Part shown: positions 8,746 through 41,825 of the stretch, piece by piece | Layout of the letters: each line of letters begins with the position of its first letter | How positions within the stretch are numbered: position 1 is the first letter of the stretch | IMG/VR virus record: IMGVR_UViG_3300037296_000055 | Coordinates: 1 to 64,000 of that record | Length of the DNA: 64,000 nt | Source of the DNA: a virus | Direction: 5' to 3' (one strand) | Notes under the pieces: model-generated | Told to the model about the DNA's origin: nothing | Databases searched by the model: none | Seen by the model: only the letters and a program-made list of their open reading frames with translations | Made by a program: the position numbers and the translations under genes

Positions 8746-10908
8746 TTAGCTGAAAGCGAAGTCACTTAGCATGACTTCCTCGATGTCCAGAGTGCCGATT
8801 TCAGGCATTAGGTCCAGAGCACCGAATTGAGTTAGTATCCCCCGGAGAGGATCGGTCTTATAAAGCTCTACGAACTTTTGTCGAACGTGGTAGAACATGT
8901 GGTTCATATTACCAGGCGTACAACCAAAACTGTCATGGATGACAGCGATAGGATACTCCACTGACGCAACCACCGAAGTAAGGTGGGCAGCATCAAGGCT
9001 ATGAATGATGTTGGGTGAAGCAGCGGCACGTTGTGCGGAGCTGTTCAGCGTAGCGTCAAGCCAGGACTCCAGTGTGACCTTGATCTCTTGGTCCGCGAAC
9101 CGGAGTTTCGTGCGCTTGATCTCGGGCTTCTTGTAGCGCTGTGCCACAATGAACCCGGTGACAGAGGTTACCCATGTCATGTATTCCGACCGTTCGTTTG
9201 CACGATCGGCCAGTGTCTCGAACAAGCCAAGCATCCGCGAGGGACCCTTTAGCTCTTCACGACATGTGTCAAAGATTTCTGCTCCGAGCTTTGCGTACCA
9301 GAGTCTCTCGCCACTTGCGATATACTCAGACACGTCAGGAGAGTCGTCAATGATTTGCTGAGAAGCACCGTAGCGCGTCAACCCGTAGCCAAGGGTCATG
9401 GTGTTGCGCTTCGCGATCTTACGCCGCTCCTTGAGGGAGGTCACTCTGTTCCAGAACACCGGGAACAGGGCTTCACGTATTGCGCGGTTATGATTCTTCC
9501 ATTCAGCCAGCTCTTGCCAAGCGTCTGCTTTGGCCTGAGAGCGGTAATCGGCTGTCAAGTAGTTCCGTTCGAGTTGCTCCTGTTGTGCAAGAACTTCGTC
9601 AAATCGGATTAACGTCCCCTGGTCCAGTTCGGCCTCTTGTTGGCCCAAACGTGTCCAAACCAGGCGTGCGACGTAGCTATACAGATCACCAGGTCGTTCT
9701 GAAGGAACAAGGTTGACCAGCCCAGCAAGCTCAGTGTCCCGTGACAAGGCAACAAGGTGTTGTGTCCCGGATACCGTCCCATCAATATAGGTAGGGAGGT
9801 GGCACACGTAATCTTCCGGCGGACCATCATGCTGCGACACTAGCCACAGCTCGAAGCATCCCGCCAGCGTAGACCACGGCTTATCTGAGTTGTGCCAGCC
9901 GGTGTTTACGGTGGGATCTGTCGCGTATCCAAGTAGCTCATCGAAGTGATCCTCTACATATTGTGCTCTGTCATCCAGAGGCAGCTTGTCTTGACCAAGA
10001 CAGTTGGCGATGTGGACGTATAGCCAGTACAGGCCGTTGTCCCCCAGGCGGTCACCCTGGGTCAGGAGGAGCATAGCCTTGCTAAGGTCTGTGCCCATCT
10101 CGTTGAGGTAGGAAGTGTTGTTGTAGATACGACCCCGGAAGTCGCAGTTGTACAGGTGGTAGAAGCTTGCATCTGCGTAGTGGCGGGCCAGCTTGAGGGT
10201 GGAGTTGGTCTCGATCTCCTTGGACGTCTTCCGACGCTGATCGAGCTCCCCTTCAAGATTGATAGGGCTGGGCAGCTCAGGGTTCTGGAGGTAGTACTCC
10301 GCGACCTCAAGCAAGGACTTGTTGATCAGCCAGGGTTGAGCCCCCAGCTTATTCAGGGCCTTGAAGACCATTGGCTGCTTCTCAGGACTGAACTGAGCCA
10401 GCACATCCTTCTCCCCTTTCTTCACGATGGGGAAGCCCAGCGGGTGGTAGCCCGATACCCAGTCACGCGGAGGGACAGCCTTGGGGAACATCTCGACCTG
10501 TCGGGTCTTGATCAGCCCCCAGAGCGAGTCGATGGCCCCTTGATCCGCGATCTCCAGCATGTAGCTGGGGTTTGCATTCTTCTTTTTCTTGGCCTGGTGT
10601 TTGCGTCGGAAGCCAAGAATACCTGCCTCGATGTAGGACACAAGAACGAACCATCCCTGCTGACATGCAGCGATAGCGTCCCGTGCCCAGCCGTATTTCT
10701 GCTGCAGAGAGCGGCCAAGCTTCACCGAGATGGCCACAAGCGACTGGTATTGCTCAATCCCATGGATGATCATGCCGAAGCAGAAGAACAGAACTTCTTC
10801 AGCAGGGGCAGCTTTCATGTCCATCGTATGGATGTGGCGGTCGCTTCGTAATAGTGCTTGACGGCGCTCAAAGTCGCCCACAAGCTTTTCTAGAGTAGTT
10901 GTTGTCAT
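8746..10908 (-). CDS. T7-family single-subunit DNA-directed RNA polymerase (stand-alone, ~720 aa)
   Basis: DFRGRIY, motif A IDGTVSGTQH, motif B RKIAKRNTMTLGYG, PNIIHSLDA, motif C IHDSFG, C-terminal FAFS. Confidence 0.97.
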   Translation of the reverse strand: MTTTTLEKLVGDFERRQALLRSDRHIHTMDMKAAPAEEVLFFCFGMIIHGIEQYQSLVAISVKLGRSLQQKYGWARDAIAACQQGWFVLVSYIEAGILGFRRKHQAKKKKNANPSYMLEIADQGAIDSLWGLIKTRQVEMFPKAVPPRDWVSGYHPLGFPIVKKGEKDVLAQFSPEKQPMVFKALNKLGAQPWLINKSLLEVAEYYLQNPELPSPINLEGELDQRRKTSKEIETNSTLKLARHYADASFYHLYNCDFRGRIYNNTSYLNEMGTDLSKAMLLLTQGDRLGDNGLYWLYVHIANCLGQDKLPLDDRAQYVEDHFDELLGYATDPTVNTGWHNSDKPWSTLAGCFELWLVSQHDGPPEDYVCHLPTYIDGTVSGTQHLVALSRDTELAGLVNLVPSERPGDLYSYVARLVWTRLGQQEAELDQGTLIRFDEVLAQQEQLERNYLTADYRSQAKADAWQELAEWKNHNRAIREALFPVFWNRVTSLKERRKIAKRNTMTLGYGLTRYGASQQIIDDSPDVSEYIASGERLWYAKLGAEIFDTCREELKGPSRMLGLFETLADRANERSEYMTWVTSVTGFIVAQRYKKPEIKRTKLRFADQEIKVTLESWLDATLNSSAQRAAASPNIIHSLDAAHLTSVVASVEYPIAVIHDSFGCTPGNMNHMFYHVRQKFVELYKTDPLRGILTQFGALDLMPEIGTLDIEEVMLSDFAFS

Positions 10909-11056
10909 CAAACCTTTTTCACGGGATGTCACCTAGTGGGTGCCCGTCTATACTGGGGTTTCAGAGATGAGTTTACTCCATTGCTACCTGTCGAAAGACT
11001 TCGAGGAATAGCACAAAGAAGAAAAACCCAATAATAGTAGTAATCCTTAGATCAAA

Positions 11057-11242
11057 TTAGTTGAGGCGCATCCGTGTTACCTGAAGGTTCAGAAGGATTT
11101 CCTCTTGTTCAGCAGGAGTTGGGACGGAGCCCGCTTCCTTTAGTACACCCGAAGGTGCGTAGGTGTGACCCCACTTAGCGTCAATGGCCTGCACCAGCTC
11201 GGTGAAGGTCATGGGAGTTTCACGTGATTGTGTCTTTGCCAA
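11057..11242 (-). CDS. hypothetical protein
   Basis: Tiles in operon. Confidence 0.5.
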   Translation of the reverse strand: MAKTQSRETPMTFTELVQAIDAKWGHTYAPSGVLKEAGSVPTPAEQEEILLNLQVTRMRLN

Positions 11243-11639
11243 GTTGTGTTACTCCTACAGTGTCATAGCGCAAGCCGAGGTTTCGGCAGGCTTTCTGCGC
11301 CATCTCTGCCCGGCAGGACAGGAATGGATCGAAGATCAGAGTGTGAGTCGGCTTCCAGGCATTCAGCACGAAGAAGTCACGGAGGAAGTTACCGGACTCT
11401 TGCGCCTGCTTAGGGATGACGATCACCTCTGCAGTGCCGCTGTCGATTTTGCGACTTGCTAGCCAGGGCTGGAGAAAGCGCTCCGTGCCCGAGGTCAGAC
11501 GCCCCACGTAGATCTTTCGGGGCTTGAGGATCTGGAAGTTCACGTCGAACTCGTAGAACGCTCGCTTCTCGTTAGTGTCGGTCGGGTTGCCGACCAGGAA
11601 CCAGCTAAGCTGAATGTCCTTTGGTACTTGCTGTGCCAC
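11220..11639 (-). CDS. hypothetical protein (GTG start inferred)
   Basis: Tiles in operon. Confidence 0.5.
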   Translation of the reverse strand: MAQQVPKDIQLSWFLVGNPTDTNEKRAFYEFDVNFQILKPRKIYVGRLTSGTERFLQPWLASRKIDSGTAEVIVIPKQAQESGNFLRDFFVLNAWKPTHTLIFDPFLSCRAEMAQKACRNLGLRYDTVGVTQLGKDTIT

Positions 11640-12030
11640 GGTAAATCCCTTGCAATTTTTCCAGTGTGGCGACCCCCTCCAGCTCGTAAGGAGGACGATC
11701 ATCGTTGAACCGTCCGACCAGCATTGCGTCAAGGAGAATGGCGTTGGAGGCCATGTCATGAGCAAGGTGGTGGATCAGCGAGTCCTGGGCGAAATCCTCT
11801 CCGGACCACCAGGACAACGTGTGACGCATCTTGGCGTTGAAGAACACAGAGGCTGTGACCCCTGTTCCACGCCAGTTGAAGGCACCGTACTTGGTGGCAC
11901 CATCTTGCATCGCAGCTCCCAGAGCCATGATGGCCACAGGAGGGATGACAGCGGACGTTGGTTTACCCAGCGCCGCCATCGTCTTCAGGTTCGTATCAAT
12001 AGGCTGGGTCTTCGTCGGGATCAGTTCCAT
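11605..12030 (-). CDS. dATP/dGTP diphosphohydrolase-domain protein (DUF5664-like)
   Basis: GATKYGAFNWR...AKMRH...GED...DS.IHHLAH. Confidence 0.88.
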   Translation of the reverse strand: MELIPTKTQPIDTNLKTMAALGKPTSAVIPPVAIMALGAAMQDGATKYGAFNWRGTGVTASVFFNAKMRHTLSWWSGEDFAQDSLIHHLAHDMASNAILLDAMLVGRFNDDRPPYELEGVATLEKLQGIYRGTASTKGHSA

Positions 12031-12526
12031 AAGTAGCTTTACCTTTGTTCTTGTTAGCAGTCTTCAACGCGGGCGTCACAAGACCATAAATGGAGTAGTA
12101 CTGGGTCTTCCAGAGGCTGACCGAGACCAGAGCGTAGATGCCCTCACGGTCGCCGATTTCAGGGATTTTGGAGTCAGTAGGAACGACAAAGCGTTCGAAG
12201 ATGGGCTGGACGTTGGGGTCCATGTTGTCGTCAGATACCCAGATCAGCAGCAGCTGCATGTCGTCCAGCTCGCTACCGTAGTCATCGTCGTCGTCGTCGC
12301 CTTCCGCCATGCCACCGAACAGATGGTTGTAGAGATCCCCTCGGGACTTGTCCACCGACTCTTCAGCAGGCGTTGTGTTGTCCACGACCACCGTGGGGCG
12401 GCTGGGGATCACCACTTCAGGCATGATCACGTCGCCGTGGATGATCTCTCGCGGATCAACCTCAGGCAGAGTCACCCCGCCAAGTAACGGTTTGTCCTGC
12501 ACTAACACCACCGATGTACCGACCAT
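11996..12526 (-). CDS. acidic hypothetical protein
   Basis: Start reassigned to MVGTS after GGAG. Confidence 0.55.
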   Translation of the reverse strand: MVGTSVVLVQDKPLLGGVTLPEVDPREIIHGDVIMPEVVIPSRPTVVVDNTTPAEESVDKSRGDLYNHLFGGMAEGDDDDDDYGSELDDMQLLLIWVSDDNMDPNVQPIFERFVVPTDSKIPEIGDREGIYALVSVSLWKTQYYSIYGLVTPALKTANKNKGKATYGTDPDEDPAY

Positions 12527-12902
12527 TGTTTTCTCCAATTCGTTTTGGGGATGAGATGTATTCATAGATGGAGGCCTCAACAGGTTCGTCCTGGCCTTCC
12601 AAGTCAAAAGAGCGCACGTAGCGCTGGTACATAGAGCCGTTGCCCTCAAGGCGATCAAGATCGCGCAACAGAGAGGGATCGGTCATCTCATAGAGCTCCC
12701 CGGTAATGTGGGCAGCGTGGCGCTCATCCGCAGGGCGGTCCCAACCATCGACGTTGATGGCCAGGGGGAAGCCCACATCGTAGAGCAAGTAGTCAGGACG
12801 TGCTGTGACGGCCTTTCCGATCAGCCGAGCACGGTTGCCCATGTCCAGCCGATCATAGTTCCAAAATCCGGCCTTCAAAGACCCATATACGAAGAAGTTC
12901 AT
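12462..12902 (-). CDS. gamma-glutamylcyclotransferase (AIG2/YtfP-like)
   Basis: FVYGSLKAG..N, ITGELYE, LDRLEG, YQR. Confidence 0.92.
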   Translation of the reverse strand: MNFFVYGSLKAGFWNYDRLDMGNRARLIGKAVTARPDYLLYDVGFPLAINVDGWDRPADERHAAHITGELYEMTDPSLLRDLDRLEGNGSMYQRYVRSFDLEGQDEPVEASIYEYISSPKRIGENNGRYIGGVSAGQTVTWRGDSA

Positions 12903-13588
12903 CGGCGAGCCACCTTCCGTGGACCAGGTTCCCGGATCAGGAGCTGGAGTGTGTTGTGGGAGCCAGGGTTATACCACTCCGCCATAGGCCGGAAGCCCAG
13001 AGCAATGTAGCAGTGGATGAGGAAGGCAGAGTCATCCCGGTTCAGAACAGGGATCATCTCCAGGGTTTTCGACTCCCACTGACTATCCTTCAGGTCCAGG
13101 ACCCGCTCCAGCGCCCCGATGATCACCGCATAGTCACGGCTCTGACCAATGTCCAGGTCAGGCAGGGCGGTGTGAACACCGTAGACAATGCCCACGCTGG
13201 GTGAGTGGTGGGCGTAGGAACGGAAGTACAGAGTCCCATAACTGATATGGGCTTCCTGCGCTGGGGTCAGCACCACCGGAATATCGTCCCCTGGTAGAGT
13301 CTCTGCCCGTGGGAGGTTGCGACGGACCTGGGGTGGGTTGGGGTTGCGGACCCAAGTGCGGGCCCCTGCAACACGCCCGAAGGCCCAGATGGTGGTGTCC
13401 GTCTCATGGACAACCTCGATGAACTCCTCCCGATCCTCCTTGTAGATCCGGCCCATCGCCTCATAGTTGGCCCGGCTCAGGATCAGCAGACGGGGGTTGA
13501 TCTCCACCGTCCCTGCCATGAAGTGAGCGACTTGTTCGGACGCGCCCATCTGCGATACGCCGCAGCAGCCTGCAATGTGGTTTGCCAT
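12899..13588 (-). CDS. hypothetical protein
   Basis: Start MANHIA after GGAGG. Confidence 0.65.
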   Translation of the reverse strand: MANHIAGCCGVSQMGASEQVAHFMAGTVEINPRLLILSRANYEAMGRIYKEDREEFIEVVHETDTTIWAFGRVAGARTWVRNPNPPQVRRNLPRAETLPGDDIPVVLTPAQEAHISYGTLYFRSYAHHSPSVGIVYGVHTALPDLDIGQSRDYAVIIGALERVLDLKDSQWESKTLEMIPVLNRDDSAFLIHCYIALGFRPMAEWYNPGSHNTLQLLIREPGPRKVARR

Positions 13589-13592
13589 GATG

Positions 13593-13874
13593 TTATGCCT
13601 CCAACCAAGCACGGATTTTCTCAGAGTTCGCAGGCAGACCGACCTTACGGCTCTGCTCCACGTCGTCCTTGAACAGGATCGCTGCAGGAACACCGACAAT
13701 CGCCTTGTCCTGCGCCTCCTGAACGTTCTCCGGAAGGGTGATGTCCTTCACGACCAGGGGGACGCCCAGGTCAGTTGTGATGGACTCATAGTACCCCTGC
13801 GCCTTGGCACAGATGTCAGAGGCCCAGGCACTCGTGTACAGTACCACAGACAGGTTTTTCTTTTCTTCGGTCAT
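13593..13874 (-). CDS. thioredoxin/glutaredoxin-fold protein with atypical active site
   Basis: VVLYTSAWASDIC...IVGVPAAILFKD. Confidence 0.75.
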   Translation of the reverse strand: MTEEKKNLSVVLYTSAWASDICAKAQGYYESITTDLGVPLVVKDITLPENVQEAQDKAIVGVPAAILFKDDVEQSRKVGLPANSEKIRAWLEA

Positions 13875-13896
13875 GTTTGTCTCCATCCGAAATGAT

Positions 13897-13946
13897 AAAA
13901 AAAGAGTTAGAAAGAAGTCGGTCCCCAGCCCCCGAAGGGGCCAGGG
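13897..13946 (-). terminator. putative intrinsic terminator (UUCG hairpin, delayed U-tract)
   Basis: CCCTGGCCCC-TTCG-GGGGCTGGGG, then a pyrimidine run and T7 on the - strand. Confidence 0.6.
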
Positions 13947-13954
13947 TAGAGGGT

Positions 13955-14209
13955 TTAGGACTGAGCCAAGAGGAGCTCGGTCTCGAACAAGTGGTTAGGT
14001 GTGAAGACGACACCCACCACAGCGTCTTCGTTTCGATCGATACGGGCCTCAAGGGAGAGCCGGAACGCGCGACTTTCGTTGGTACGATCAGAAGAGCGAC
14101 GCACCGTGTAGAGTGCATCCTCAAGGGACAAGTCGCCATGCCAGATCTTAGACTCTGGTGTGTTCCGGCGAACCAGCCGCGCAATTCGTAGGACGGGAAG
14201 TTCAGCCAT
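13955..14209 (-). CDS. hypothetical protein
   Basis: Tiles in operon. Confidence 0.55.
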   Translation of the reverse strand: MAELPVLRIARLVRRNTPESKIWHGDLSLEDALYTVRRSSDRTNESRAFRLSLEARIDRNEDAVVGVVFTPNHLFETELLLAQS

Positions 14210-14453
14210 TTTTTGACTTACCTTTCTTGGGCTCGGCCTTTGGCTTCTTCAAGGAGAAGTATAAGACCAGGGCAATCCCTAAAGAAGCTGCGAAGGACAG
14301 CCCATAGGCCACTCCTAACATCAGACATCCGAAGCAGATTACGTCGAACCGGGTTATCTCGGGCCAAACCAGCCCGAGTTTGTTGGAGTTGTTTTCCGCA
14401 GCGGCCTTGCGCTCTCGGAAGTGTCGAGGAAGCTCCCAGAACGGAAGCTCCAT
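14202..14453 (-). CDS. small membrane protein
   Basis: Start MELPFW; hydrophobic stretch and basic tail. Confidence 0.55.
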   Translation of the reverse strand: MELPFWELPRHFRERKAAAENNSNKLGLVWPEITRFDVICFGCLMLGVAYGLSFAASLGIALVLYFSLKKPKAEPKKGKSKNG

Positions 14454-14460
14454 CCAGCTC

Positions 14461-15051: not shown

Positions 15052-15180
15052 GAGTCACCTCCAAGGGTGTTTAGGGTTTTTTCTTAGGCTTCTTGCCTGA
15101 AGAATCCAAGTTAGCCAGACCCTTTAGGGCGGCCAGAACAACAAGCGTCATGATGATCGCTGCTGCAAAATCGGAGACCA

Positions 15181-16057: not shown

Positions 16058-16075
16058 AGTTCAATACCTTCAGGT

Positions 16076-16561: not shown

Positions 16562-16749
16562 TCTGAGCCTTCAGCTCTTTGCAGGTCTCGTCAGCAAGAG
16601 GGCTGATGATGAAGACGTAGACCAGAATGATGATCACTAACGCTTTGAACATTACCAATCTCCCTTCCAGCAACCCCAAGCAGAGAAACAAACCACCACG
16701 ACGAGGGCGATCACGACCATTGTTGTATCAGACATCAAAGTCTCCTTGA

Positions 16750-17900: not shown

Positions 17901-17945
17901 AGAAGATCATTCTTCTATTATAGATACACCGTTTTTCTCACTTTT
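17901..17945 (-). promoter_or_regulatory. putative early promoter, motif E copy 1
   Basis: AAAAGTGAG-N7-GTGTATCTATAATAGAAGAATGATCTTCT; 29-bp core identical in 3 copies. Confidence 0.8.
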
Positions 17946-22829: not shown

Positions 22830-23192
22830 TCATGACCCCTTCCCCTCTTTGATGTACCATCCCTCTGTCTGGGACAGTTTGAGGCCAGGGATCCGAATAC
22901 CGGCAATCTCCAACGCGGCAAACTGCTCAGCCCGGAACCGGTTGAACTCCATCCGCTTCTGCAGACGGGGTATCCAGTCAGGAACCAACATCATGGAGAA
23001 GAGGACATCCCCGAACTCCTCGATGATCCGAGCAGTGCCCTCCTGGTTGTCGATTGACTCTCCGAGCTCTCCCAGTTCCTCATCAAGCTTACGACGAGCG
23101 TAGCCTGCCTTACCCAGCCGAGCCTTGCGCTCCTCCTGGGCCTTGCTGAAAGTATAGAGATCCTTGAGGAACTCTTTGTTGAAAGTGTCCAT
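22830..23192 (-). CDS. second MazG-like protein
   Basis: KLDEELGELGESI...IIEEFGDVLF. Confidence 0.75.
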   Translation of the reverse strand: MDTFNKEFLKDLYTFSKAQEERKARLGKAGYARRKLDEELGELGESIDNQEGTARIIEEFGDVLFSMMLVPDWIPRLQKRMEFNRFRAEQFAALEIAGIRIPGLKLSQTEGWYIKEGKGS

Positions 23193-23301
23193 AGTGGGTT
23201 GTACTCCATCAAAGGTGTGTGTGTGTTAGGTAGTGTGGGGTGAGGGCTTTAGCCTCGTTGTCATCGTGTAACCTCATGGGGTTAGAGTTCTTTGTTGGGT
23301 T

Positions 23302-23346
23302 AGAAGATCATTCTTCTATTATAGATACACCCTTTTCCTCACTTTT
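23302..23346 (-). promoter_or_regulatory. putative early promoter, motif E copy 2
   Basis: Same bipartite motif, intergenic. Confidence 0.8.
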
Positions 23347-23588: not shown

Positions 23589-23932
23589 CCCAGGAACCTC
23601 CCCAGAATGGTCACATGACGGAGTTCGATCTTTTCGATCGTGTGGACCCCCTCTTGCCCGTGAGGTACTAGGTCGGAGAAGATGTCCAACTCCTCCTCGG
23701 TCAGGGTGGGATACACACTCTCACGGGTCTCACCACCACGGAAGTGGCCCCAGTTGTACAGGTGTGGTTGGTTTACGGAACGCTCCCGGATCAGGTCTGA
23801 GACCTTTTGCACGAGGGCAAGAGTCTCCAGTCCCTCCTTGTTGTCCGGTATCACGGTCTCCTGGGTCACGTAGTCCGCATCGTTCTCGTCGGCTTTCACC
23901 AGAAGGAAAGTCTGTGTTGTCTTGTCGCTCAT
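23585..23932 (-). CDS. hypothetical early protein
   Basis: Start MSDKTT after GGAG; ADENDADYV. Confidence 0.7.
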   Translation of the reverse strand: MSDKTTQTFLLVKADENDADYVTQETVIPDNKEGLETLALVQKVSDLIRERSVNQPHLYNWGHFRGGETRESVYPTLTEEELDIFSDLVPHGQEGVHTIEKIELRHVTILGRFLG

Positions 23933-24270
23933 GTTGTGGGGTTCTCCGTGGTTGTGGGGGTGGGGGTGGACCTGGCGCCGGTGCTGTACCAGGCCCAGGC
24001 CGTAGCAGCGTCCTCGAAAGAAATGGCCGACTCCGGACACTGCCGTAGCCCGTGGGCCTTCTTGAACAGGAGCAGGAGGTAGGCCAACTGTTGGAACTGC
24101 TGGAGGGTATTGACCTCACCGTGCAGGAACAGGTTGATGTGGTTCTCAGGATCGCCCTCGGCAGGTACGAGGGGCTCGCGGGTGTAGGCGTAGTAGCCTC
24201 CCCCGAACAGACCGCCCTGGTCGAAGTAGAGGAACAAACGTCGTGGTGTGTCTTGGCTGATGCTGGTCAT
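23929..24270 (-). CDS. hypothetical protein, first gene of the early arm
   Basis: GGAG RBS directly downstream of motif E copy 3. Confidence 0.65.
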   Translation of the reverse strand: MTSISQDTPRRLFLYFDQGGLFGGGYYAYTREPLVPAEGDPENHINLFLHGEVNTLQQFQQLAYLLLLFKKAHGLRQCPESAISFEDAATAWAWYSTGARSTPTPTTTENPTT

Positions 24271-24312
24271 GGTGTAGGTTACTCCATCAAAGGTGTTGTT
24301 GTTGTTGTGGTC

Positions 24313-24357
24313 AGAAGATCATTCTTCTATTATAGATACACTAAATTCCTCACTTTT
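24313..24357 (-). promoter_or_regulatory. putative early promoter, motif E copy 3
   Basis: Same bipartite motif at the head of the leftward arm. Confidence 0.8.
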
Positions 24358-24368
24358 TACCACGTTTC

Positions 24369-24390
24369 TACCAGGGGACGTTATATGATA
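24369..24390 (+). promoter_or_regulatory. putative late promoter, motif L copy 1
   Basis: TACCAGGGGACGTTATATGATA, identical in 3 copies. Confidence 0.78.
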
Positions 24391-24414
24391 TAGGAGTCCC
24401 AAAACCGGTAGTTT

Positions 24415-24436
24415 TACCAGGGGACGTTATATGATA
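24415..24436 (+). promoter_or_regulatory. putative late promoter, motif L copy 2
   Basis: TACCAGGGGACGTTATATGATA. Confidence 0.78.
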
Positions 24437-24716
24437 AGGGTGCCTCGGTTCCCTCATCGGTGGTCCTGACCATCAAGATAAATCAGGCTCTGTGACCAGA
24501 CTCTTAGGGTAAGGTATCAGAAGAAGTATCTAAGCTCCACGGGGCGAGGGTCTGCCGAGGGTCACCTGAATGACAACTTGGTAAGGCGGGATGACTCAGC
24601 AGAGAGTTGTCCGAGGGAAGTAATGTCAGGTCTACTGTTACCCCGGTCCCCCTCCTTTATGATACTTCTTCTGATGCTTTACCCAGTAGAGAGGGTCATA
24701 TAGGATGTCCGAGGCT
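24437..24716 (+). ncRNA. candidate rod-like structured RNA or late 5' leader
   Basis: 24-bp stem 24507-24530/24661-24684 with two G-U pairs, plus nested flanking stems. Confidence 0.5.
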
Positions 24717-24974
24717 TATGAAGTAACCTCCTCATTCATCCTTCATCATCCATTCCTATACTACATCCTTCATCATACATCATCACCACACATAAGGTAA
24801 TACACCCACATGACTTACTCCACATACTTCGCCGGTGCCAACTCTGCTCCAACAGCCAGCGTTGCACCTGATGAACAACAACAACCCAACACCACAACTA
24901 AACAACCTATCACCAGCTACTCCGAGTACTTCGGTGAAGCGGTGAAAACCATGCTGAAATAAGGAAACCTGATC

Positions 24975-26286: not shown

Positions 26287-27642
26287 ATGCCCACCGTAGA
26301 ACTTCACCGAGCTCAGTCAGAGATTGTCTATGACATGTTCGGACCCAATCCTGAGTGGACCCTCCGCTACGGCGTTGTTGTTGGCTCACGAGGGTTGGGG
26401 AAGTCCTACGTTGCGGCAACCTCAGCTGTCATGGCCATCGCAGAGCTGGAAACCCTCCCCTCTTCTGTTCCCAATAAAAACATCAGCTTGATTTGTGGGT
26501 CAAACCAACAGGTTGCTGACGTTTATCTTCCTCTTTTCAACTTCGTCTACGGACTAGACCACCCACGACGCTGTGTCAAGCACACGACAGCCCTTGGCCA
26601 GGTCCGCTGGACTTTCAAGAACGGCACCACGCTCTCCCTACGCTCGGCAGAAGTCGCTGAACGGATGCGGGGCACAGGCCAGTACATGGTGATCCTTGAC
26701 GAGATGCCCACCTGGGAACTCAAAGGCTCTAACCACGAGACGGTCTGGGAGTCGATCATCAACCCCACAATCACCACCCGTTGGTCCCCTGAACAAGCCA
26801 CCGCTGTTGGAGCTCCTAGCCCCGGTCGCGCTCTGTTCATCGCCTCGCCCCTCGGCAAGGACTACTTCTACGAGCTCTCCATGAACACTATCGTGGATCC
26901 TCGCTGGAAGACCCGTCAGTATACCTATCGCGACTCTCCTCTGCTGTCCCAGAAGACTATCGAGGAAGAGAAGAAATCCATGGACCCCATGCGGTTCGCC
27001 CGAGAGTACGAGGCCTCCTTCGAAGAGTCTGGTGCTCGTGTCTACCATTCGTTCGATCGTGTTATGCATGTTGAGAAAGACTTGGCCCCCTTCGGAGAGA
27101 CCGAGACTGTCCATGCCGCTATCGACTTCAACGTTCTGAAGAACTGCACAAGCTTCCATGCCATCCGTGGTGGCCAAATTCACACACTGGAAGAGTCCAT
27201 TGGTACAGCAAATACTCAAGAGCTTGCGGAGCTTATCCGTCGTCGCTTTCCTAAGAACAAGATCATCTGTTACCCTGACCCCTCAGGAGTTGCAAGAAAG
27301 ACTTCCGCTGTGGTTGGAGTCACCGACTTTAGTATCCTACGACAGGCAGGCTTCGAAGTTCTAGCAAAGTCTAAGGCCCCTGGTATTACCGACTCTGCCA
27401 ACGCTGTGAACAGGATGTTCCTGAACGCTGCTGGAGAGACCAACTGGTATGTCGCTCCTGTCTGCACCCACTTCATCAAGTCTCTGGAACGTACTGTGTG
27501 GCTAGAGAGCCGCCCTGACTCGGCCATCATTGACAAGTCTCTGGACGTGGAACACTTCGGCGACGGTGCTCGCTACTTCGCTGAGTACATGTTCCCCGTA
27601 AACTCCTATCGTACAGCAACCAAGAGAGGCTTTGTGTTCTGA
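26287..27642 (+). CDS. terminase large subunit
   Basis: Walker A GSRGLGKS, Walker B VILDE, nuclease IDFN, YPDPSG, EHFGDGARY. Confidence 0.95.
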   Translation: MPTVELHRAQSEIVYDMFGPNPEWTLRYGVVVGSRGLGKSYVAATSAVMAIAELETLPSSVPNKNISLICGSNQQVADVYLPLFNFVYGLDHPRRCVKHTTALGQVRWTFKNGTTLSLRSAEVAERMRGTGQYMVILDEMPTWELKGSNHETVWESIINPTITTRWSPEQATAVGAPSPGRALFIASPLGKDYFYELSMNTIVDPRWKTRQYTYRDSPLLSQKTIEEEKKSMDPMRFAREYEASFEESGARVYHSFDRVMHVEKDLAPFGETETVHAAIDFNVLKNCTSFHAIRGGQIHTLEESIGTANTQELAELIRRRFPKNKIICYPDPSGVARKTSAVVGVTDFSILRQAGFEVLAKSKAPGITDSANAVNRMFLNAAGETNWYVAPVCTHFIKSLERTVWLESRPDSAIIDKSLDVEHFGDGARYFAEYMFPVNSYRTATKRGFVF

Positions 27643-34147: not shown

Positions 34148-34148
34148 C

Positions 34149-34793: not shown

Positions 34794-35005
34794 AGGGCTG
34801 GCGCACCCGCATCTTCAACATCACTATCGGTCTCGTCACCGTTGGCGTGTCGGTGGTCGGTGCCCTACAAGACAACATCTCCTACCTAGATCTAACTCCA
34901 AATACGCGAAACATGCTGCTGATCGGCATTGTCGTCTTTCAGACTATCGGCAACGTAATCCTACGTGAATTCACAGATAGCGCTCCAGGAACAAATGGTA
35001 AATAA
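34757..35005 (+). CDS. putative holin
   Basis: LKGWRT followed by two TM segments; overlaps the endolysin end. Confidence 0.65.
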   Translation: MVKDFPVPFPKLKGWRTRIFNITIGLVTVGVSVVGALQDNISYLDLTPNTRNMLLIGIVVFQTIGNVILREFTDSAPGTNGK

Positions 35006-35639: not shown

Positions 35640-35645
35640 ACCCTC

Positions 35646-37247
35646 ATGGTACAACGCCCTACAAAACCTCTATCCCAATCCCCTGGTGCTGAGAATGCCC
35701 AGTATGAGTCTTTCCTCCCTCTGTGGAAGCGAGCCAGGGCGGTAATGAACGGAGAGCATGCCGTAAAGGAAGCTGATGCACGTATTGATCGCATAAAGTT
35801 TTCTAACCTCCTGCTCCCCTTCTCCCCAATGATGGACGACCAGCAGTACGCCTTCTACAAGGCCGAAGCTGAGCTCCCCGGTCTTACCTCTCAGTATGGT
35901 AAGGTCATTGCGGGTGGCCTCCTGCGCCGCCAGCCCACCATCGAGCTCCCTGAGTCTGTTCCTGAAGACGCTAAGACCTGGTTCACCGACGACTTCACTG
36001 TTGATGGTAAGTCCATGGTCTCCTTCCTGGACGAAGCCCTGTGGGAAGAAGTATGTTCCTCCCGTGCCTGGGTCATTATCGATTATCCTAGCGTGGACAA
36101 TCCTGAAGAGCTGACCTCTGAGCAACGTGCAAAGATCCGCCCCTACCCTGTCCTCTGGAAGGCCGAAGATGTCATCAACTGGCAGACTCAGCTGAGCCCC
36201 TATACCGGTCAGGAGGAGCTCTCTCGCCTGGTCATCCGCTACTACGAAGAAGAGTTCGTGGACAAAGACGCCTTCAGCCCTGAGCTGGTCGAGTACGCTA
36301 TCGACTATTCGCTTGACGCAGAAGGTGATTACCGAGTACGGTACTTCAAACATATCGACAATCAGGCCGTCACCATCACCAACGGCAACATGTCCCGACC
36401 TAACAACCTTGCCGCTAATGGCGTGGGCGAAGACTGGGACCTGGTACGTACTGTCTACCCGGAAATCCGTGGCGAGATGCTGAAGTCTATTCCTGCCTTC
36501 CCTCTGAACGGTTCTCTCCGTCCCCGTGAGCCCATCCTGATGCCGCTGGTTGACCGTGAGGTCTCCCTGTACAACAAGCTTGCTCACCGTAACCACCTGC
36601 TCTACACAGCCTCCACCTTCACTCCTGTCTTGTTCACCGACATCCAAGACGAAGAGTTCCTGGACATTGTGCAGCAAGGTCTGGGTACCTACATCCGGCT
36701 ACGCCCTGATGACAAGGTAGGGGCTCTGAAGGCCCCTGTTGAGGCACTCTCCGGTCTGGAGTCCGCTATCGCAAGCACCATCGACGAGATGGCCCGGATG
36801 GGTATCCGTCTACTGTCTCCTGACGGTAATCAAGGTGACTCCGGTGTTGCTCTGGAAATCCGTAACTCTGCTCAGACCTCTCAGCTCGCAACGCTGAACG
36901 TGAAGATCTCTCAGACAATGCGTGACATCCTGTCCCTGATGATCGACTGGAAGTATGACCTCCAGATCGAGCCTCATGACATCGACTTCACTCTTAGTGC
37001 TGACTTCAACCCTACTCCTATCGGCGAAGCTTGGATGACAATGATCACCGGCTGGTACGATACTGGCAAGATCCCTCGCTCCCTGTGGCTCTCCGTGGCC
37101 AAGCAGAACGACATCATCCCACCTGACTACGATGATGATGAAGGTATGCAGGAGATCGGCAGTGACCCCACCCGGATCGCTGAGACTCCCACAACCCTGG
37201 ATCCTGACTCCTTCGAGAGGCCAGCTCCCAAACCCGTCGCAACCTAA
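35646..37247 (+). CDS. portal protein (DUF4055-like)
   Basis: Size, position, motifs AEDVINW and SGVALEIR. Confidence 0.88.
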   Translation: MVQRPTKPLSQSPGAENAQYESFLPLWKRARAVMNGEHAVKEADARIDRIKFSNLLLPFSPMMDDQQYAFYKAEAELPGLTSQYGKVIAGGLLRRQPTIELPESVPEDAKTWFTDDFTVDGKSMVSFLDEALWEEVCSSRAWVIIDYPSVDNPEELTSEQRAKIRPYPVLWKAEDVINWQTQLSPYTGQEELSRLVIRYYEEEFVDKDAFSPELVEYAIDYSLDAEGDYRVRYFKHIDNQAVTITNGNMSRPNNLAANGVGEDWDLVRTVYPEIRGEMLKSIPAFPLNGSLRPREPILMPLVDREVSLYNKLAHRNHLLYTASTFTPVLFTDIQDEEFLDIVQQGLGTYIRLRPDDKVGALKAPVEALSGLESAIASTIDEMARMGIRLLSPDGNQGDSGVALEIRNSAQTSQLATLNVKISQTMRDILSLMIDWKYDLQIEPHDIDFTLSADFNPTPIGEAWMTMITGWYDTGKIPRSLWLSVAKQNDIIPPDYDDDEGMQEIGSDPTRIAETPTTLDPDSFERPAPKPVAT

Positions 37248-37259
37248 CAGTAGGTACTT

Positions 37260-40200
37260 ATGGAAAATCAAGACATCTTCGATCGGCAGGTAGACCACCT
37301 GATCCGCACTCGTATGTTCACCGAAGAGCTTCAGAACAAAGTCTCGTCCATGTCCGAAGGGCATCGTCGTAGTCTCCTGAACATCTTCCGTACTGGACGA
37401 CCGAGTGAGATCCGCCTGGAAGTCAACCGCTACGTGGAGGAAATGAAGTCCTCCATCCGTGGTGGTATGACCGACTACCTTGGAGCGGAGATCTCTTTCC
37501 AAAAGTCAACAGCTCAGCGTTCTGTGGGGAGCTTCTATTCCCTGCAGGATGTTGACCGTGGCAAGGTGGCCAACCGGCTGCTGAACCAGCCTATCACCTT
37601 CTCGCAGACTTCCTCTGTAGGGACAGGCATCCTTCCTTCCCTGGATGCCATGGCCCCTGCCCAAACCTCTCGCCTGAACACCGTGATCCAGAAGGGTCTG
37701 TTGGAAGGCAAGTCAAGGGCCGAGATCGAAGCCTCTCTGCTGAAGACCACCAAGCTGACCGAGAACCAGGCCCGCACCCTGGTCACCACCGGTATTACCC
37801 ATGCGCAAGAATTGACCACCCAAGAGTTCTGGGACGCTAACCCTGATGTTCTGTCAGGCTTCGTCTACACAGCAATTCTGGATGGTAACACCACTCGCAC
37901 CTGCGGCTCCTTGGATGGCACTGTGTTCCCTGCGGATGCTGTCACCCATCGCCCACCCCTACACTGGAACTGTCGTTCTAGTCTGGTGCCTGTCCTGAAG
38001 GACTACGACGCTCTGGTTGCCACTGACAGCCCACGCGTCACACAAAGCGCCCTTGCTGACATTCCTCCGAGCAGGTTCAATGGCCAACCACCACTCCGCG
38101 AGAACTTCGAAGAGTGGTTGCGTCGTCAGCCCTTCAAGCGACAACAATCCTTACTCGGCTCCGAAGATGCTGCCACTCTGTTCCAGAACGGTACGCTCCG
38201 GATGAACGAGTTCTTCACTAAGCTGAAACGTCCTATCTCTATCGGCCAACTCCGCACACTGGATGCCAAGTCCACCTTCTCGTATTCAAAAGACTCTCTG
38301 GATGCTAAGGTACGTGTTGCGGCCACCCGTCCTGCAGATCTTGTTCGTAGCCCTGGCTTGGCCAAAGATCTAAAGGCCCTAATTCTGGCGGACGCCCGAG
38401 ATGCCTCTCAGTCAATTTCTCTCACTGACTATCGCGGTGTTACCCTTGGAGGTAAGCGCAGCGTACGTCGTGCTACTTACAATGAGTACGATCCTCGCAA
38501 CCACCAGTATGATCCCTACACCGGCGAGGTTAGAAGTTCATACTACTACAACCCCGACTATGTCTTACTTACAGAGCGCCTTGATGTTATCCAACGATCC
38601 CAGGTACTCTCCAAGCCCCAACGAGAATGGATCACGAAGTTCGTAAACTCTCTGGAGGATGACGTCTCCGTGAACCAGCAGTCCGTGATTGCTGAGACAC
38701 TACGTCTTACCTTCGAGCGTGCTGCCCGTGACACCTCCATGGGCTGGAGCGACTATGCCGGTGTTTTCCGGGCCGAGTCCAAGTTTGGTGTGACCAACGT
38801 CTCCCGTATCCTTGACCGACGCTCTCGTGCCGGTGACGAGATGTTCACCCGCTTTGCTGATGTTGATGAGCCTGCCGCTATCCAGATCCTGGGTGAGTGG
38901 AAGACCTTTGAAGACCTCACTTCTAATCGGAACCGGAACCAACAGTTCATTAGGGACTGGGACAAGCAAGAGGGCCGCGCTCTGGCACGGAGGGTATACT
39001 ACGGGCGTGCAGTTGACCTTGCGAAGGGTCGTGTAATAGACGCTCCTGGTGCTCCCACACGGGCCTATTTGCTGGGCCTCCGTCCGAAGGTCAAAGGACC
39101 TAACAAGGACATTGTCAAGTGGGTCGAGGCCAACATCCCTGGCATCAACACTTTCAAGTTCGGAGCTCTGAAGGGCTCTAACACTGTGGCTGGCTGGATC
39201 GAGTCGGTCCCCGGAGTGAAGCAGTGGAACTCGTTCATGAAGGAATGGGCTAAGCCTTACGATCCGATCCTCTACCGTCTGAAGAATGGACTGAGTGCCA
39301 AGGTACGTAACATCCTTGACCTTGAGTTCCTGAAGATGAGTGACCGACGTGGTCTGGTTGACCGCTTCATAACTTCCCGAGTTCTTGGGGACAACGAAGA
39401 CATTCAGGTGCTGCAGAAGGTGATGAAGACCATCGCCGGAGGGACCATGACTGACTATGACGGTCTTGCCATCACCATCGGTAAGGAACTGTACAAGCAG
39501 TATCGCCCTCTCCGTCCCTGGTACAAGCCTACTCTGCAAGACTACCACCGGGATGGTGCGGGTATCCTTGAGTCTCTCCGTGAGAACGGTACGCTCCGAG
39601 TGATGTCCCGTGGCGTGAACCGTCGTGGAGTTCTTGACCTTGATACAGGTCGTGTAGGACCACCTTTCCGAGACACCGTGTCCCGTGAGGTGACCATCCT
39701 TGATAAGGACCTGGTTCAGCTCCAGCGAGCTAACCGTGAGATCATCGTTGCTGACCGTGTGGGTATCACAGGTCCCTCCAACGAGTATCACGTTCGTGTG
39801 GGTAAGAAAGAGTACTTCGACGCTTACGGCAACAACACTGGTCGTTCTGTGATCACCAGGTCTGCAGCGCCGTTCTACGATGAGAACCTGATCGATAAAG
39901 ACTTCGCTGACATGCTCAATCATACCATGTCTTCCAAATACCAGACCGATAACGACTTCTCCCGGTTCATGCTGGACCTTGCCCGCTTCCGCGATGTTCG
40001 TGGTCGTGTGGACTACTATGACGACCTCAACCTGTTCCGCCACGACATCATCAAGCGAGGAGAGCAAGGCTTTGGGCTTATGGAAACTGTAAAGTTCCAC
40101 AATGCTCGACAGAAGCCCTTCTCCGTGATGGCTCGTATCGACGGTCGAGGCCGTGTCTACTACAATGGCTATCTGACCCCCACAGGCGGTGAGATGGTCC

Positions 40201-41780
40201 GACCCTTCCTGAACTCTGCCAAGGCTGTGCCTATGACGCCAGGGGGACTACAACAACTTCGTGCTACCATCGGTGTTCTGACAGGTAGCTCCACTGAAAC
40301 CCTAACAGATGCTGGACGCTACGCCTCCTTCTACAAGAACGAGAAATCAATCTTGGAGATCGGTCGGCTCATGCAAGCAACCACTCAGCGAGATCGTCGT
40401 ATCCGTGAGTTCCTCGAACATCCTCTCATCCGCGCAACGGACGGTGAGGAGGTGGCCAAGCTAGGCCGCTTTGCTCTGGAATACGCACGTATCCACGATC
40501 ACATGGGCGGTGACTTCACGGATCTACGCAGGCTCTCGTTGTACGAGACGCGTCTGATGTCCGAGGTCGATGCCAGTGCCAGCGCACTACAAATGATTTC
40601 ACTTGCCACAGGTGACCGCCAAGCAGCACTCTTGTCTAACGTTCTTCCCACAACTCGGAAGCAGCGGATCTATGACATTGTTGCTCAGGAAGTTGCCAGT
40701 GACCCTCGGTTCCTGAAGATCATGGAAGAAACCGGACTTGACCTGAACTGGGAAGACCTTCAAAAGGCTGCCAAGTATCACGTCCTTGTTTCCTACTATG
40801 GTGCCGGGAGCACAGGCCAGCGTGCCCGTGTTACTGCCGAACTTGTGAACATCCTGAAGAAACGAAACGTGGGCTACATTACACGTTCTGAACAGCTTGC
40901 GGTGAACCGCGCCCTTACTGACAACATCAAGACAGCAACCGCAATGGGAGCTGAGGAGACTGTTGATGCCCTTACCTCGTTCAAGCGTGAGCTGAATGAT
41001 CTGGTCAAATCAGGAGAGCGTCCGTCCACAGCAATGTTCACTGAAGCGGCTGAGATGCATCCAGACGTCTTCAACTTTCTTGATAAGCTGTCCCGTCCAA
41101 CGGCAGATCCCTTCGTCGGTCCCGAGACCTTCAAAGATATCGCTGTCCTGTTGTCCGAGAAGCTGGAAGAACAAACCCCGAGGGCTTCCCAGTACATCAA
41201 ATTCTGGAAGAAGGCTGCCCAGCGGTTTGCAGAAGAGACCAACACGGTCGACGTCCCCTGGGTTACTTTCGACGGAAAGCAGCTATGGCAGAGGTATCGT
41301 CCTAAGGTCCAAGAGTCAATACGTTTCCGTGATCCTGTGTCGAACCGCTTCGTGCGGAACGTGTATCAGGAGGCAGCGGAGAGCGCCACACTGCTTGGCA
41401 AGGGTTCCATCGGCGATGTTCGCCTAGGGGCTGGAGTCAACGGTACCCACATGAATGACGCCTCGATCGTGAGGATGTTCCACCTGTGGGGTAAGAAGAA
41501 CGGTATCCAGACGGGCACCATTCATGACGCTTTCTTCGTGAACCTAAATCACCTTGACGACTCTGTCCAGACGCTTCTTGAGATCTACGCTAAGGCCTCT
41601 CAGGCCCACCAGATCGAGAACACGATGCTTGCCATGCTTAAGGAAGGCATGACCAAGTCCTCGTACAACGAACTGCTGGCGACCGCGAGAGAACTCGGTT
41701 TGATAGGTCAAACTCTTGACCCGAACGAGATCTTACGTATCCCGAACGCTAACGAGTCCCGCTACGGTTTCGGCCCCTAA
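37260..41780 (+). CDS. MuF (SPP1 gp7-like) head protein fused to a T7-family RNA polymerase; putative virion RNAP
   Basis: N-terminal YTAILDGNTTRTCGSLDG...PPLHWNCRS; C-terminal DGRGRVY, EVDASASALQ, KAAKYHVLVSYYG, NGTHMNDA, TIHDAFF. Confidence 0.9.
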   Translation: MENQDIFDRQVDHLIRTRMFTEELQNKVSSMSEGHRRSLLNIFRTGRPSEIRLEVNRYVEEMKSSIRGGMTDYLGAEISFQKSTAQRSVGSFYSLQDVDRGKVANRLLNQPITFSQTSSVGTGILPSLDAMAPAQTSRLNTVIQKGLLEGKSRAEIEASLLKTTKLTENQARTLVTTGITHAQELTTQEFWDANPDVLSGFVYTAILDGNTTRTCGSLDGTVFPADAVTHRPPLHWNCRSSLVPVLKDYDALVATDSPRVTQSALADIPPSRFNGQPPLRENFEEWLRRQPFKRQQSLLGSEDAATLFQNGTLRMNEFFTKLKRPISIGQLRTLDAKSTFSYSKDSLDAKVRVAATRPADLVRSPGLAKDLKALILADARDASQSISLTDYRGVTLGGKRSVRRATYNEYDPRNHQYDPYTGEVRSSYYYNPDYVLLTERLDVIQRSQVLSKPQREWITKFVNSLEDDVSVNQQSVIAETLRLTFERAARDTSMGWSDYAGVFRAESKFGVTNVSRILDRRSRAGDEMFTRFADVDEPAAIQILGEWKTFEDLTSNRNRNQQFIRDWDKQEGRALARRVYYGRAVDLAKGRVIDAPGAPTRAYLLGLRPKVKGPNKDIVKWVEANIPGINTFKFGALKGSNTVAGWIESVPGVKQWNSFMKEWAKPYDPILYRLKNGLSAKVRNILDLEFLKMSDRRGLVDRFITSRVLGDNEDIQVLQKVMKTIAGGTMTDYDGLAITIGKELYKQYRPLRPWYKPTLQDYHRDGAGILESLRENGTLRVMSRGVNRRGVLDLDTGRVGPPFRDTVSREVTILDKDLVQLQRANREIIVADRVGITGPSNEYHVRVGKKEYFDAYGNNTGRSVITRSAAPFYDENLIDKDFADMLNHTMSSKYQTDNDFSRFMLDLARFRDVRGRVDYYDDLNLFRHDIIKRGEQGFGLMETVKFHNARQKPFSVMARIDGRGRVYYNGYLTPTGGEMVRPFLNSAKAVPMTPGGLQQLRATIGVLTGSSTETLTDAGRYASFYKNEKSILEIGRLMQATTQRDRRIREFLEHPLIRATDGEEVAKLGRFALEYARIHDHMGGDFTDLRRLSLYETRLMSEVDASASALQMISLATGDRQAALLSNVLPTTRKQRIYDIVAQEVASDPRFLKIMEETGLDLNWEDLQKAAKYHVLVSYYGAGSTGQRARVTAELVNILKKRNVGYITRSEQLAVNRALTDNIKTATAMGAEETVDALTSFKRELNDLVKSGERPSTAMFTEAAEMHPDVFNFLDKLSRPTADPFVGPETFKDIAVLLSEKLEEQTPRASQYIKFWKKAAQRFAEETNTVDVPWVTFDGKQLWQRYRPKVQESIRFRDPVSNRFVRNVYQEAAESATLLGKGSIGDVRLGAGVNGTHMNDASIVRMFHLWGKKNGIQTGTIHDAFFVNLNHLDDSVQTLLEIYAKASQAHQIENTMLAMLKEGMTKSSYNELLATARELGLIGQTLDPNEILRIPNANESRYGFGP

Positions 41781-41803
41781 AAGTGATGATTTTATGTCAT
41801 TTC

Positions 41804-41825
41804 TACCAGGGGACGTTATATGATA
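41804..41825 (+). promoter_or_regulatory. putative late promoter, motif L copy 3
   Basis: TACCAGGGGACGTTATATGATA upstream of scaffold/capsid genes. Confidence 0.8.

Follow-up and report, generated by a model that had tools for sequence, protein, structure and literature searches.

Two T7-like RNA polymerases, one of them fused to a MuF domain, and two promoter-like motifs suggest a transcription relay in a Naomviridae-like siphovirus

Bacteriophage N4 (Schitoviridae) conducts its transcription programme with the virion RNA polymerase (RNAP) gp50, then with RNAPII (gp15/gp16) and then with host RNAP. The siphovirus genome described here resembles N4 in that it encodes two T7-family polymerases. 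It is the IMG/VR virus record IMGVR_UViG_3300037296_000055 (82,504 bp), bases 1-64000 of which form the stretch of DNA analysed (the window). One polymerase, RNAP2, stands alone in a leftward gene arm; the other, the MuF-RNAP fusion, carries an N-terminal MuF domain and lies in a rightward arm. Two promoter-like motifs, E and L, accompany them. An earlier note on this DNA had proposed a relay in which a virion RNAP reads E and yields RNAP2, and RNAP2 reads L and yields new virion RNAP. The layout fits this proposal and is conserved over two large phage clades, and a two-polymerase relay built from two T7-type enzymes is our best reading, one that we hold to be moderately probable; the strictly reciprocal wiring of the note is too neat.

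In N4 the packaged polymerase starts at few (about three) special early promoters, whose transcripts encode the second polymerase. An N4-type early promoter is a DNA hairpin with a 5-7-bp stem that the virion RNAP recognises. A hairpin also accompanies the putative early promoter E, but it lies downstream of the conserved block and is weak in a sister clade (13%). N4 is a podovirus whose gp50 comprises 3500 aa without a MuF fusion and whose RNAPII is a heterodimer, whereas the present phage is a siphovirus with a 1506-aa fusion bearing an N-terminal MuF and with an RNAP2 of a single 728-aa chain; the N4 combination of heterodimer, podovirus and gp50 is not found here. The modelled fusion polymerase is, moreover, nearer T7 RNAP (Z 31) than N4 mini-virion RNAP (mini-vRNAP; Z 17), and while the late genes of N4, including the vRNAP gene, are read by host RNAP, those of the present phage lie behind predicted T3-like L promoters.

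The giant myoviruses phiKZ and AR9/PBS2 run a reciprocal relay of virion and non-virion multisubunit RNAPs that is independent of host RNAP, and the DNA of AR9/PBS2 contains deoxyuridine (dU). Their enzymes, unlike those considered here, are multisubunit two-barrel polymerases without a head-protein fusion. With T7, T3 and SP6 (Autographiviridae) the present phage has in common an RNAP2 with all T7 motifs, an L motif that aligns with T3 promoters, and L leaders that often start with a stem-loop; those phages, by contrast, have one polymerase, which is made by host RNAP, and package none.

A siphovirus precedent is Thermus phage P23-45 (PMC10770324), in which a virion RNAP fused to the tape measure protein leaves the particle with the DNA and transcribes pre-early genes, including that of a second polymerase, gp64. 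Of its two promoter motifs, the one belonging to the virion RNAP occurs only in relatives with the fusion (PMC10770324), and the comparative logic is the one followed here. The P23-45 polymerases, however, are two-barrel (cellular-type) enzymes, the carrier is the tape measure protein and late genes are read by host RNAP; here the enzymes are of the right-hand T7 type, with MuF as carrier. A similar build is known from MuF-fused effectors (polymorphic toxins, polyvalent proteins; PMC5512222), whose N-terminal MuF is joined to an enzyme at the C-terminus, a cargo for which packaging and injection are predicted, but the cargo here is a complete T7-like RNA polymerase, a combination not listed in the literature searched. 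Iyer et al. 2017 (PMC5512222) state that virion RNAP modules occur only in N4-like phages. A full-text literature search found no description of a MuF-RNAP fusion or of this relay, and two Naomiviridae papers (PMC8323127, PMC12669031) make no mention of RNA polymerase.

The relay concept is therefore known from N4, phiKZ/AR9 and P23-45, and what is new is the hardware: a MuF-borne complete T7-like polymerase in a siphovirus, accompanied by another T7-like enzyme of one chain and by T3-like promoters ahead of the late genes. If the relay is real, it would constitute a third structural way of bringing in a polymerase along with the genome, beside N4 gp50 and the tape-measure and multisubunit systems, and one that combines a widespread MuF carrier with a compact T7-like enzyme. 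It would also explain how infection starts in an abundant, poorly sampled group of marine and saline phages, some members of which have dU-DNA, and would supply two new orthogonal pairs of single-subunit RNAP and sharply defined promoter as useful tools. The case is directly testable, as the roseophage DSS3_VP1 and its host Ruegeria pomeroyi are cultured. DSS3_VP1 and DSS3_PM1 (Naomviridae) are the closest cultured relatives, and both polymerases are 40-42% identical to theirs over the full length.

Two T7-like polymerases

8746-10932, minus strand: RNAP2, stand-alone T7-like single-subunit RNA polymerase, 728 aa (PF00940, E=2.9e-74, 251 bits)
37260-41780, plus strand: MuF-RNAP fusion, candidate virion RNAP, 1506 aa, beginning 13 nt after the end of the portal gene

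Both polymerase genes lie where the earlier note had placed them, RNAP2 in the leftward arm with the E copies upstream on its own (minus) strand, and MuF-RNAP in the rightward arm with two L copies (L1 and L2) upstream. A T7-like RNAP is recognised by a T/DxxGR element, the aspartate of motif A, the lysine and tyrosine of motif B, the His-Asp of motif C, a FAFA-type C-terminal foot and a specificity loop. Aligned to T7 RNAP (phmmer E=1e-61), RNAP2 exhibits DFRGR, motif A as YIDGTVSGTQH, motif B as RKIAKRNTMTLGYG, motif C as IHDSFG and a C-terminal SDFAFS, and its specificity loop aligns to T7 residues 739-770. Judged by its sequence, RNAP2 is an intact T7-like single-subunit RNAP in which every one of these elements is present.

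In the fusion protein, the MuF part extends over approximately residues 50-345 and the T7-like polymerase over approximately residues 540-1506. PF04233 matches residues 139-242 with 37.7 bits (cut-off 29.6) and phrog_241 matches with E=1.7e-49; with the Pfam threshold passed and the gene adjoining that of the portal, the N-terminal part is classed as MuF / SPP1 gp7 by sequence and position. The polymerase part is a distant match to PF00940 (residues 1093-1443, E=1.3e-8, 34.6 bits against a cut-off of 22) and to the RNAP profile (E=3e-7). An alignment of the fusion with seven relatives reveals invariant DGRGR (961-965), D1104, K1172, Y1180-G1181 and H1422-D1423.

A structural model of residues 540-1506 was computed with AlphaFold2 from a 34-sequence alignment (mean predicted local distance difference test, pLDDT, 84.6; predicted template modelling score, pTM, 0.81). 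It superimposes on T7 RNAP residues 30-882 with Z=31.2 (548 residues aligned, root-mean-square deviation 4.0), on mitochondrial RNAPs with Z of approximately 27-28, and on N4 mini-vRNAP with Z=17.5. Because the match spans T7 RNAP residues 30-882 at Z=31.2, the cargo is a whole T7-like polymerase complete with the N-terminal domain, not an enzyme of the N4 type. In this model the fusion polymerase keeps the catalytic motifs and the right-hand fold, and on that basis it counts as a T7-like RNAP.

The fusion gene sits between the portal and scaffold genes. Among 1.84 billion proteins the family has 115 matches, in which the fusion is the norm, with full-length members of 1400-2070 aa and the polymerase at approximately 540-1500. 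The MuF-RNAP of DSS3_VP1 is gp108, of 1463 aa. We infer that MuF-RNAP is packaged in the virion.

In G020, a complete relative, insertions of about 780 nt split each of the two polymerase genes (6449-9409 and 49193-54394), and in EBPR siphovirus 1 a gene for an HNH endonuclease splits MuF-RNAP; the genes of both enzymes seem to be targets of mobile introns or homing elements.

Repeated motifs E, E' and L

24313-24357 (core 24313-24341), minus strand: E copy 1 (E1), head of the leftward arm
23302-23346 (core 23302-23330), minus strand: E copy 2 (E2), followed by a leader and ribosome-binding-site block ACACCTTTGATGGAGTA and by the gene at 22830-23192
17901-17945 (core 17901-17929), minus strand: E copy 3, AAAAGTGAGAAAA-N7-ATCTATAAT plus the hairpin TAGAAGA-ATGA-TCTTCTA
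24366-24390 (core 24369-24390), plus strand: L copy 1 (L1; TTCTACCAGGGGACGTTATATGATA), which aligns with annotated T3 promoters
24412-24436 (core 24415-24436), plus strand: L copy 2 (L2), in tandem with copy 1
41801-41825 (core 41804-41825), plus strand: L copy 3 (L3), 21 nt past the MuF-RNAP stop codon and ahead of the scaffold and major capsid genes
74160-74181 of the genome, outside the window, minus strand: L copy 4 (L4; TACCAGGGGACGTTAAAGCAGG), heading the last 16 kb of the leftward arm

The two distinct promoter-like motifs and the divergent arms that the earlier note had described are both borne out. E has a 29-nt exact core in three minus-strand copies (0.00 matches expected in dinucleotide shuffles), each lengthened by a AAAAGTGAG block to 17945, 23346 and 24357, respectively. 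L (TACCAGGGGACGTTATATGATA, 22 nt) has three exact plus-strand copies (0.00 expected in shuffles). Across 39 intergenic regions no repeats other than E and L are significant, and no third repeated motif for a virion polymerase was found in these regions. E1 and L1 stand back to back, about 8 bp apart, so that the divergent control region of about 120 bp at 24313-24436 is real.

The E consensus is bipartite and about 38 nt long, AAAAAGTGAGAAAA-N7-ATCTATAAT-RR, usually with a stem-loop directly after, and in this genome E is confined to the first 6.5 kb of the leftward arm. Using the pattern AAAAGTGAGRAA-N8-ATCTATAAT (about 20.5 specified bases), we found E in at least 119 IMG/VR contigs, in genomes that span 33-55% G+C, at 1-4 copies per genome. 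An RNAP2 homologue accompanies 37 of 80 E loci among the matches listed, and all 53 E copies in those loci are co-oriented with RNAP2 and lie 1.2-7.3 kb upstream of it (median 2.5 kb). In a logo of 89 unique copies, A13 is invariant, G19 occurs in 88, and every copy has a pyrimidine at position 20 and purines at positions 30-31; A13, G19, R30 and R31 are conserved though not forced by the search pattern. The fused polymerase is present in 14 of 20 larger E-bearing records, and in five of five of those at least 90% complete. The six records lacking it were considered as natural knock-outs and set aside, since the five examined are without any MuF, the head module being simply missing.

In DSS3_VP1, two E copies (AAAAGTGAGAAAACTAAGGCATCTATAAT), at 35791 and 36238, lie 6 kb upstream of the RNAP gene. 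The same phage has a partial E (CACGCATCTATAAT) without the upstream block at 67770-67810; a terminator-like hairpin immediately precedes it, and the conserved gene gp032 follows. The partial record of EBPR siphovirus 1 contains neither E nor L, and no E was found in Pelagibacter phage Kolga, in which an RNAP2 homologue is present and the MuF lacks a polymerase domain.

The hairpin of the present phage has a 7-bp stem (TAGAAGA-ATGA-TCTTCTA) opened by the last T of TATAAT. Perfect stems that begin at this T and measure 5 bp or more occur in 61% of 89 foreign E copies, against 3.8% (maximum 9%) in shuffles. The stems comprise 17 different sequences with loops of 3-8 nt, and this covariation together with the variable loop length points to base pairing rather than a fixed protein operator. 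Provided that transcription starts right after TATA(A), as it does at T7-type promoters, E transcripts would begin with a 5' stem-loop. An N4-like hairpin promoter is a possible reading that we do not adopt: the stem follows the conserved block, few copies in the sister clade have it, and in structure the enzyme resembles T7 RNAP more than that of N4.

The leaders of E2 and E1 (23173-23218 and 24251-24296) hold in common the 17-nt block ACACCTTTGATGGAGTA, with a ribosome-binding site, and the starts of their first genes are also alike, which suggests that a promoter-plus-leader cassette was duplicated.

The consensus of L is ACCAGGGGACG-Y-TA-W-A-K. When phi9, phi10 and phi11, annotated promoters of T3, are aligned with the L forms, every L form has the C at -7 and the TA at -4/-3 in common with them, and nearly all rows have A at -1. 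The L forms of the family and of DSS3_VP1 match T3 (C/T)TAAA-G at -5 to +1; the three exact copies of this phage read TTATA-T. A T7-group promoter is an element of about 23 bp with (C/T)TA(A/T)A at -5 to -1 and a purine start, found in several copies ahead of middle and late operons. Motif L has these features, in 4 copies here and 3-16 in relatives, and is accordingly a predicted promoter. DSS3_VP1 contains at least 16 L-type copies (ATAGGGTGCGTTAAAGAGGGG) across its genome, and the relatives G002, G003, G006, G011 and G020 contain 3-6 copies of TTTACCAGGGGACGCTAAAGAGAGA, with an L variant directly after the RNAP2 stop codon in four of these five. Copies in relatives are spread over middle and late genes, often with a stem-loop after them. 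A contrast between a variable L and an invariant E, entertained at one point, was wrong: L is also conserved across clade 1 (ACCAGGGGACGCTAAAG), the C variant included.

A common 16-nt G/C block, ATGCTCCCCCCTGCCC, follows L3 (41840-41855, plus strand) and L4 (genome 74131-74146, minus strand, outside the window), and it likely pairs with a preceding GGGG(T)GGAG or GGGAGG run to form a 5' stem-loop on the L3 and L4 transcripts. Many L transcripts appear to begin in this way.

Repeats of this kind need not be promoters, and might instead be replication, packaging or regulatory-RNA elements or recently duplicated leaders. The leader block common to E2 and E1 suggests duplication, and the hairpin of E might have a regulatory function, as DNA or as RNA. 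All copies, however, are intergenic and oriented with the next gene, E standing 40-60 nt before a ribosome-binding site and L at operon heads; L aligns with annotated T3 promoters; and well over a hundred divergent contigs keep the motifs in the same position and orientation. We consider a non-promoter role very improbable.

The comparison extends to a second group of MuF-RNAP siphoviruses (66-97 kb; 79 loci), the sister clade, whose polymerase domain is about 31% identical to that of this phage. All 11 near-complete genomes examined carry both polymerases, with an RNAP2 homologue of 32-38% identity. Motif E is absent from these 11 genomes with three mismatches allowed; in its stead they have E', with the consensus GCGGAAAA-N5-GTATCTTATATGA (block tGCGGAAAA), at 1-3 copies per genome and 0.9-5.0 kb upstream of RNAP2. 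At least 119 stretches of IMG/VR DNA match the E' pattern, more than one from the same contig in some cases, and all 46 E' copies in RNAP2-bearing loci are upstream of and co-oriented with RNAP2. E and E' are mutually exclusive between the two clades and have a common layout: a G-rich/A-tract block, a 6-7-nt spacer, then GTATC, TATA and TGA. At its 3' end E' reads TTATATGATA, exactly as L does in its initiation region in this phage (ACGTTATATGATA). The three motifs thus resemble members of a single promoter family that differ in their upstream specificity regions, and the promoters of T7, T3 and SP6 are related likewise. A perfect stem occurs in 13% of E' copies versus 4% in shuffles; as it is weak in E', the hairpin is supportive rather than defining. 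Exact k-mer searches in two sister-clade genomes (G026 and G029) yielded no late motif L'.

Which polymerase reads which motif

In the relay that we favour, the MuF-fused polymerase would be made late, would be brought inside the capsid, next to the portal, by its MuF (SPP1 gp7-like) domain, and would enter the cell with the DNA. There it would start at E promoters, which would drive small early genes and, further downstream, RNAP2. RNAP2 would in turn start at the T3/T7-like L promoters, which would head both the packaging and structural arm, with the MuF-RNAP gene in it, and a second leftward block. E or E' is always ahead of the small early genes and RNAP2, and L is ahead of the structural genes including MuF-RNAP. 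In this genome, as in 68 related loci, the gene for a second polymerase follows the motif class that we assign to the virion enzyme. Intact enzymes, motifs conserved in the family and fixed motif positions are what the sequences show; the reader of each motif, the start sites and the independence from host RNAP are what we infer.

The two assignments differ in strength. That free RNAP2 would read L is well supported, since L aligns with annotated T3 promoters. RNAP2 is also the likelier L reader of the two enzymes because it is far more T7/T3-like than the fusion (E=1e-61 versus 3e-7) and L is T3-like. That the virion RNAP would read E rests on elimination, on the phage-specific conservation of E and on its T7-like core: with the RNAP2 gene always behind E, some other enzyme must read E first. 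Two T7-type enzymes and two T7-type promoter classes make this the most economical pairing. In its favour, too, no third repeated motif offers itself to the fusion, and Kolga, with its plain MuF, is without E.

The roles could also be reversed or shared, with the packaged polymerase reading L or both motifs and RNAP2 reading E or a subset. Both enzymes are T7-like, E, E' and L have a TATA-N-TGA type core in common, and a comparison of specificity loops does not tell the enzymes apart. Over the two clades, however, RNAP2 is downstream of E or E' in 99 of the 99 copies scored, so that the E reader cannot be the enzyme first made from E; in this genome the strand that encodes RNAP2 has no full L copy ahead of that gene; and L is near to T3 promoters while RNAP2 is, by the E values just given, far nearer T7/T3 RNAP than the fusion is. 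Such a swap is, in our estimation, improbable.

A more serious competitor, though in our view an unlikely one, is a programme in the manner of T7, in which host sigma-70 RNAP reads E through its TATAAT and makes the early proteins and RNAP2, and RNAP2 then reads L. The upstream block and hairpin of E would in that case serve as operator, activator site or mRNA 5' element, and the MuF-fused polymerase would have another job, namely pulling DNA in, priming replication or reading undetected sites. In T7, host promoters precede the early genes and the RNAP gene, and host RNAP makes the phage polymerase. Several observations agree with such a programme and weigh against the relay. E holds a TATAAT that is perfect in all 89 unique copies, which makes host RNAP a possible reader, and conserved A residues lie 6-7 nt past it, where a sigma-70 start would fall. 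The order of E before RNAP2 also mirrors T7, the promoters ahead of early and RNAP genes resembling T7 A1-A3, and E is present in low copy number. In E', the best sigma-70-like hexamer is TATCTT (4/6), displaced by 5 nt. On the same side, co-occurrence cannot separate the two polymerases as reader of E because both are present in every complete genome of both clades, and a comparison that asked whether the near-invariance of E is mirrored in one polymerase gave no discrimination, both specificity loops varying alike. The DSS3_VP1 description (PMC8323127) contains no transcript, start-site or virion-proteome data.

Against a sigma-70 reading stands first the composition of E itself. A sigma-70 promoter has a -10 TATAAT with a TTGACA-like -35 hexamer at 16-18 bp or an extended -10 TG; E has AAAAGT at the -35 position and no extended -10 TG, and a sigma-70 consensus scan neither flagged E nor found a -35 element or an excess of sigma-70-like sites. 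The conservation of E goes far beyond sigma-70 needs, with about 28 invariant positions despite the range of G+C contents. E is essentially absent from cellular DNA: in 596 Gbp of bacterial and archaeal genomes the pattern occurs in one contig, which is phage DNA because an RNAP2 homologue lies just downstream. The sister clade lacks a perfect TATAAT and has TTATAT at the homologous site. A sigma-70 start 7 nt past TATAAT would land in the 5' arm of the stem and cut it, in the 61% of copies in which a stem begins at the last T. Finally, an intact, conserved and presumably packaged polymerase would be left without a promoter.

The strict reciprocity of the earlier note, in which each polymerase transcribes the gene of the other, fares less well than the two-polymerase relay as such. 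Two further sites bear on it:

9603-9624, minus strand: L-like core (ACCAGGGGACGTTAA) within RNAP2, identical to the L/L4 core over 14-15 nt
13275-13296, minus strand: L-like site (TACCAGGGGACGATATT, 15/17 positions) inside the open reading frame 12899-13699, 2.3 kb upstream of RNAP2

The first is possibly a weak internal promoter, and the RNAP2 genes of G003 and G011 likewise contain an L variant. An L copy analogous to the second lies at 38536 in DSS3_VP1, upstream of the RNAP gene. These sites blur a strictly reciprocal relay and suggest that RNAP2 would also boost its own gene, here and in DSS3_VP1, G003 and G011, thus feeding itself.

A broader proposition is that two large Naomviridae-like clades transcribe their whole genomes without host RNAP, by means of a MuF-borne T7-type polymerase, a new class of long bipartite promoters (E/E') and then a second polymerase on T3-like promoters. 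This would amount to a third independent invention of a virion-to-non-virion relay, possibly an adaptation to dU-DNA, and we judge it about evenly poised between right and wrong.

Gene map and neighbouring features

23929-24270, minus strand: first leftward-arm gene behind E copy 1
24437-24810, plus strand: structured leader from L2 to the first rightward genes, no Rfam family match
26287-27642, plus strand: terminase large subunit, start of the late/structural arm (PF03237, phrog_2)
35646-37247, plus strand: portal protein (phrog_145, E=3.8e-58)
42002-42664, plus strand: scaffold (phrog_206 / phrog_247 matches for the scaffold and major head pair)
42689-43786, plus strand: major head protein (same pair of matches)
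57545-57650, both strands: meeting of the leftward and rightward arms, with hairpin and T-run terminators for both directions

The 82,504-bp genome is complete and has a 127-bp repeat at both ends, so that the map is effectively circular and the leftward arm wraps round: it covers about 49 kb, from 24270 to 1 and then from 82504 to 57651. The siphovirus gene set comprises the terminase large subunit, portal, scaffold, major head protein, a 2348-aa tape measure protein and a J-like tail tip protein, and homologues of the Naomviridae DNA polymerase, primase-helicase, exonuclease and dCMP deaminase are also present. With core genes and gene order common to the type phages DSS3_VP1/PM1, the phage is, on sequence grounds, a Naomviridae-like siphovirus.

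The stretch is present in one public DNA run, a salt-lake metagenome, which is possibly its source, and in no listed RNA run. The dCMP deaminase homologue (genome 67206-67613, minus strand, outside the window) is 43% identical to that of DSS3_VP1, and the genome that carries it came from an ordinary salt-lake metagenome assembly. The DNA of both DSS3_VP1 and DSS3_PM1 contains dU (PMC8323127).

Pfam searches with ten left-arm proteins (the nine from E1 to RNAP2, plus 4352-5185 beside the DNA polymerase) found nothing beyond a weak match to MazG nucleotide pyrophosphohydrolase (E=2e-4; 21.9 bits, with the cut-off at 22) in the gene at 22830-23192 (minus strand), the first behind E2. Rfam gave no family match within the window. 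The leader at 24437-24810 (about 370 nt) folds with -130.6 kcal/mol (z=-3.56), a stability equalled in 0 of 100 shuffles, and its predicted structure is a near-perfect long 24-bp stem around a multibranch core. Near its C-terminus the tape measure protein contains a 90-nt internal repeat (52556-52645 and 53570-53659, plus strand) with 72% identity.

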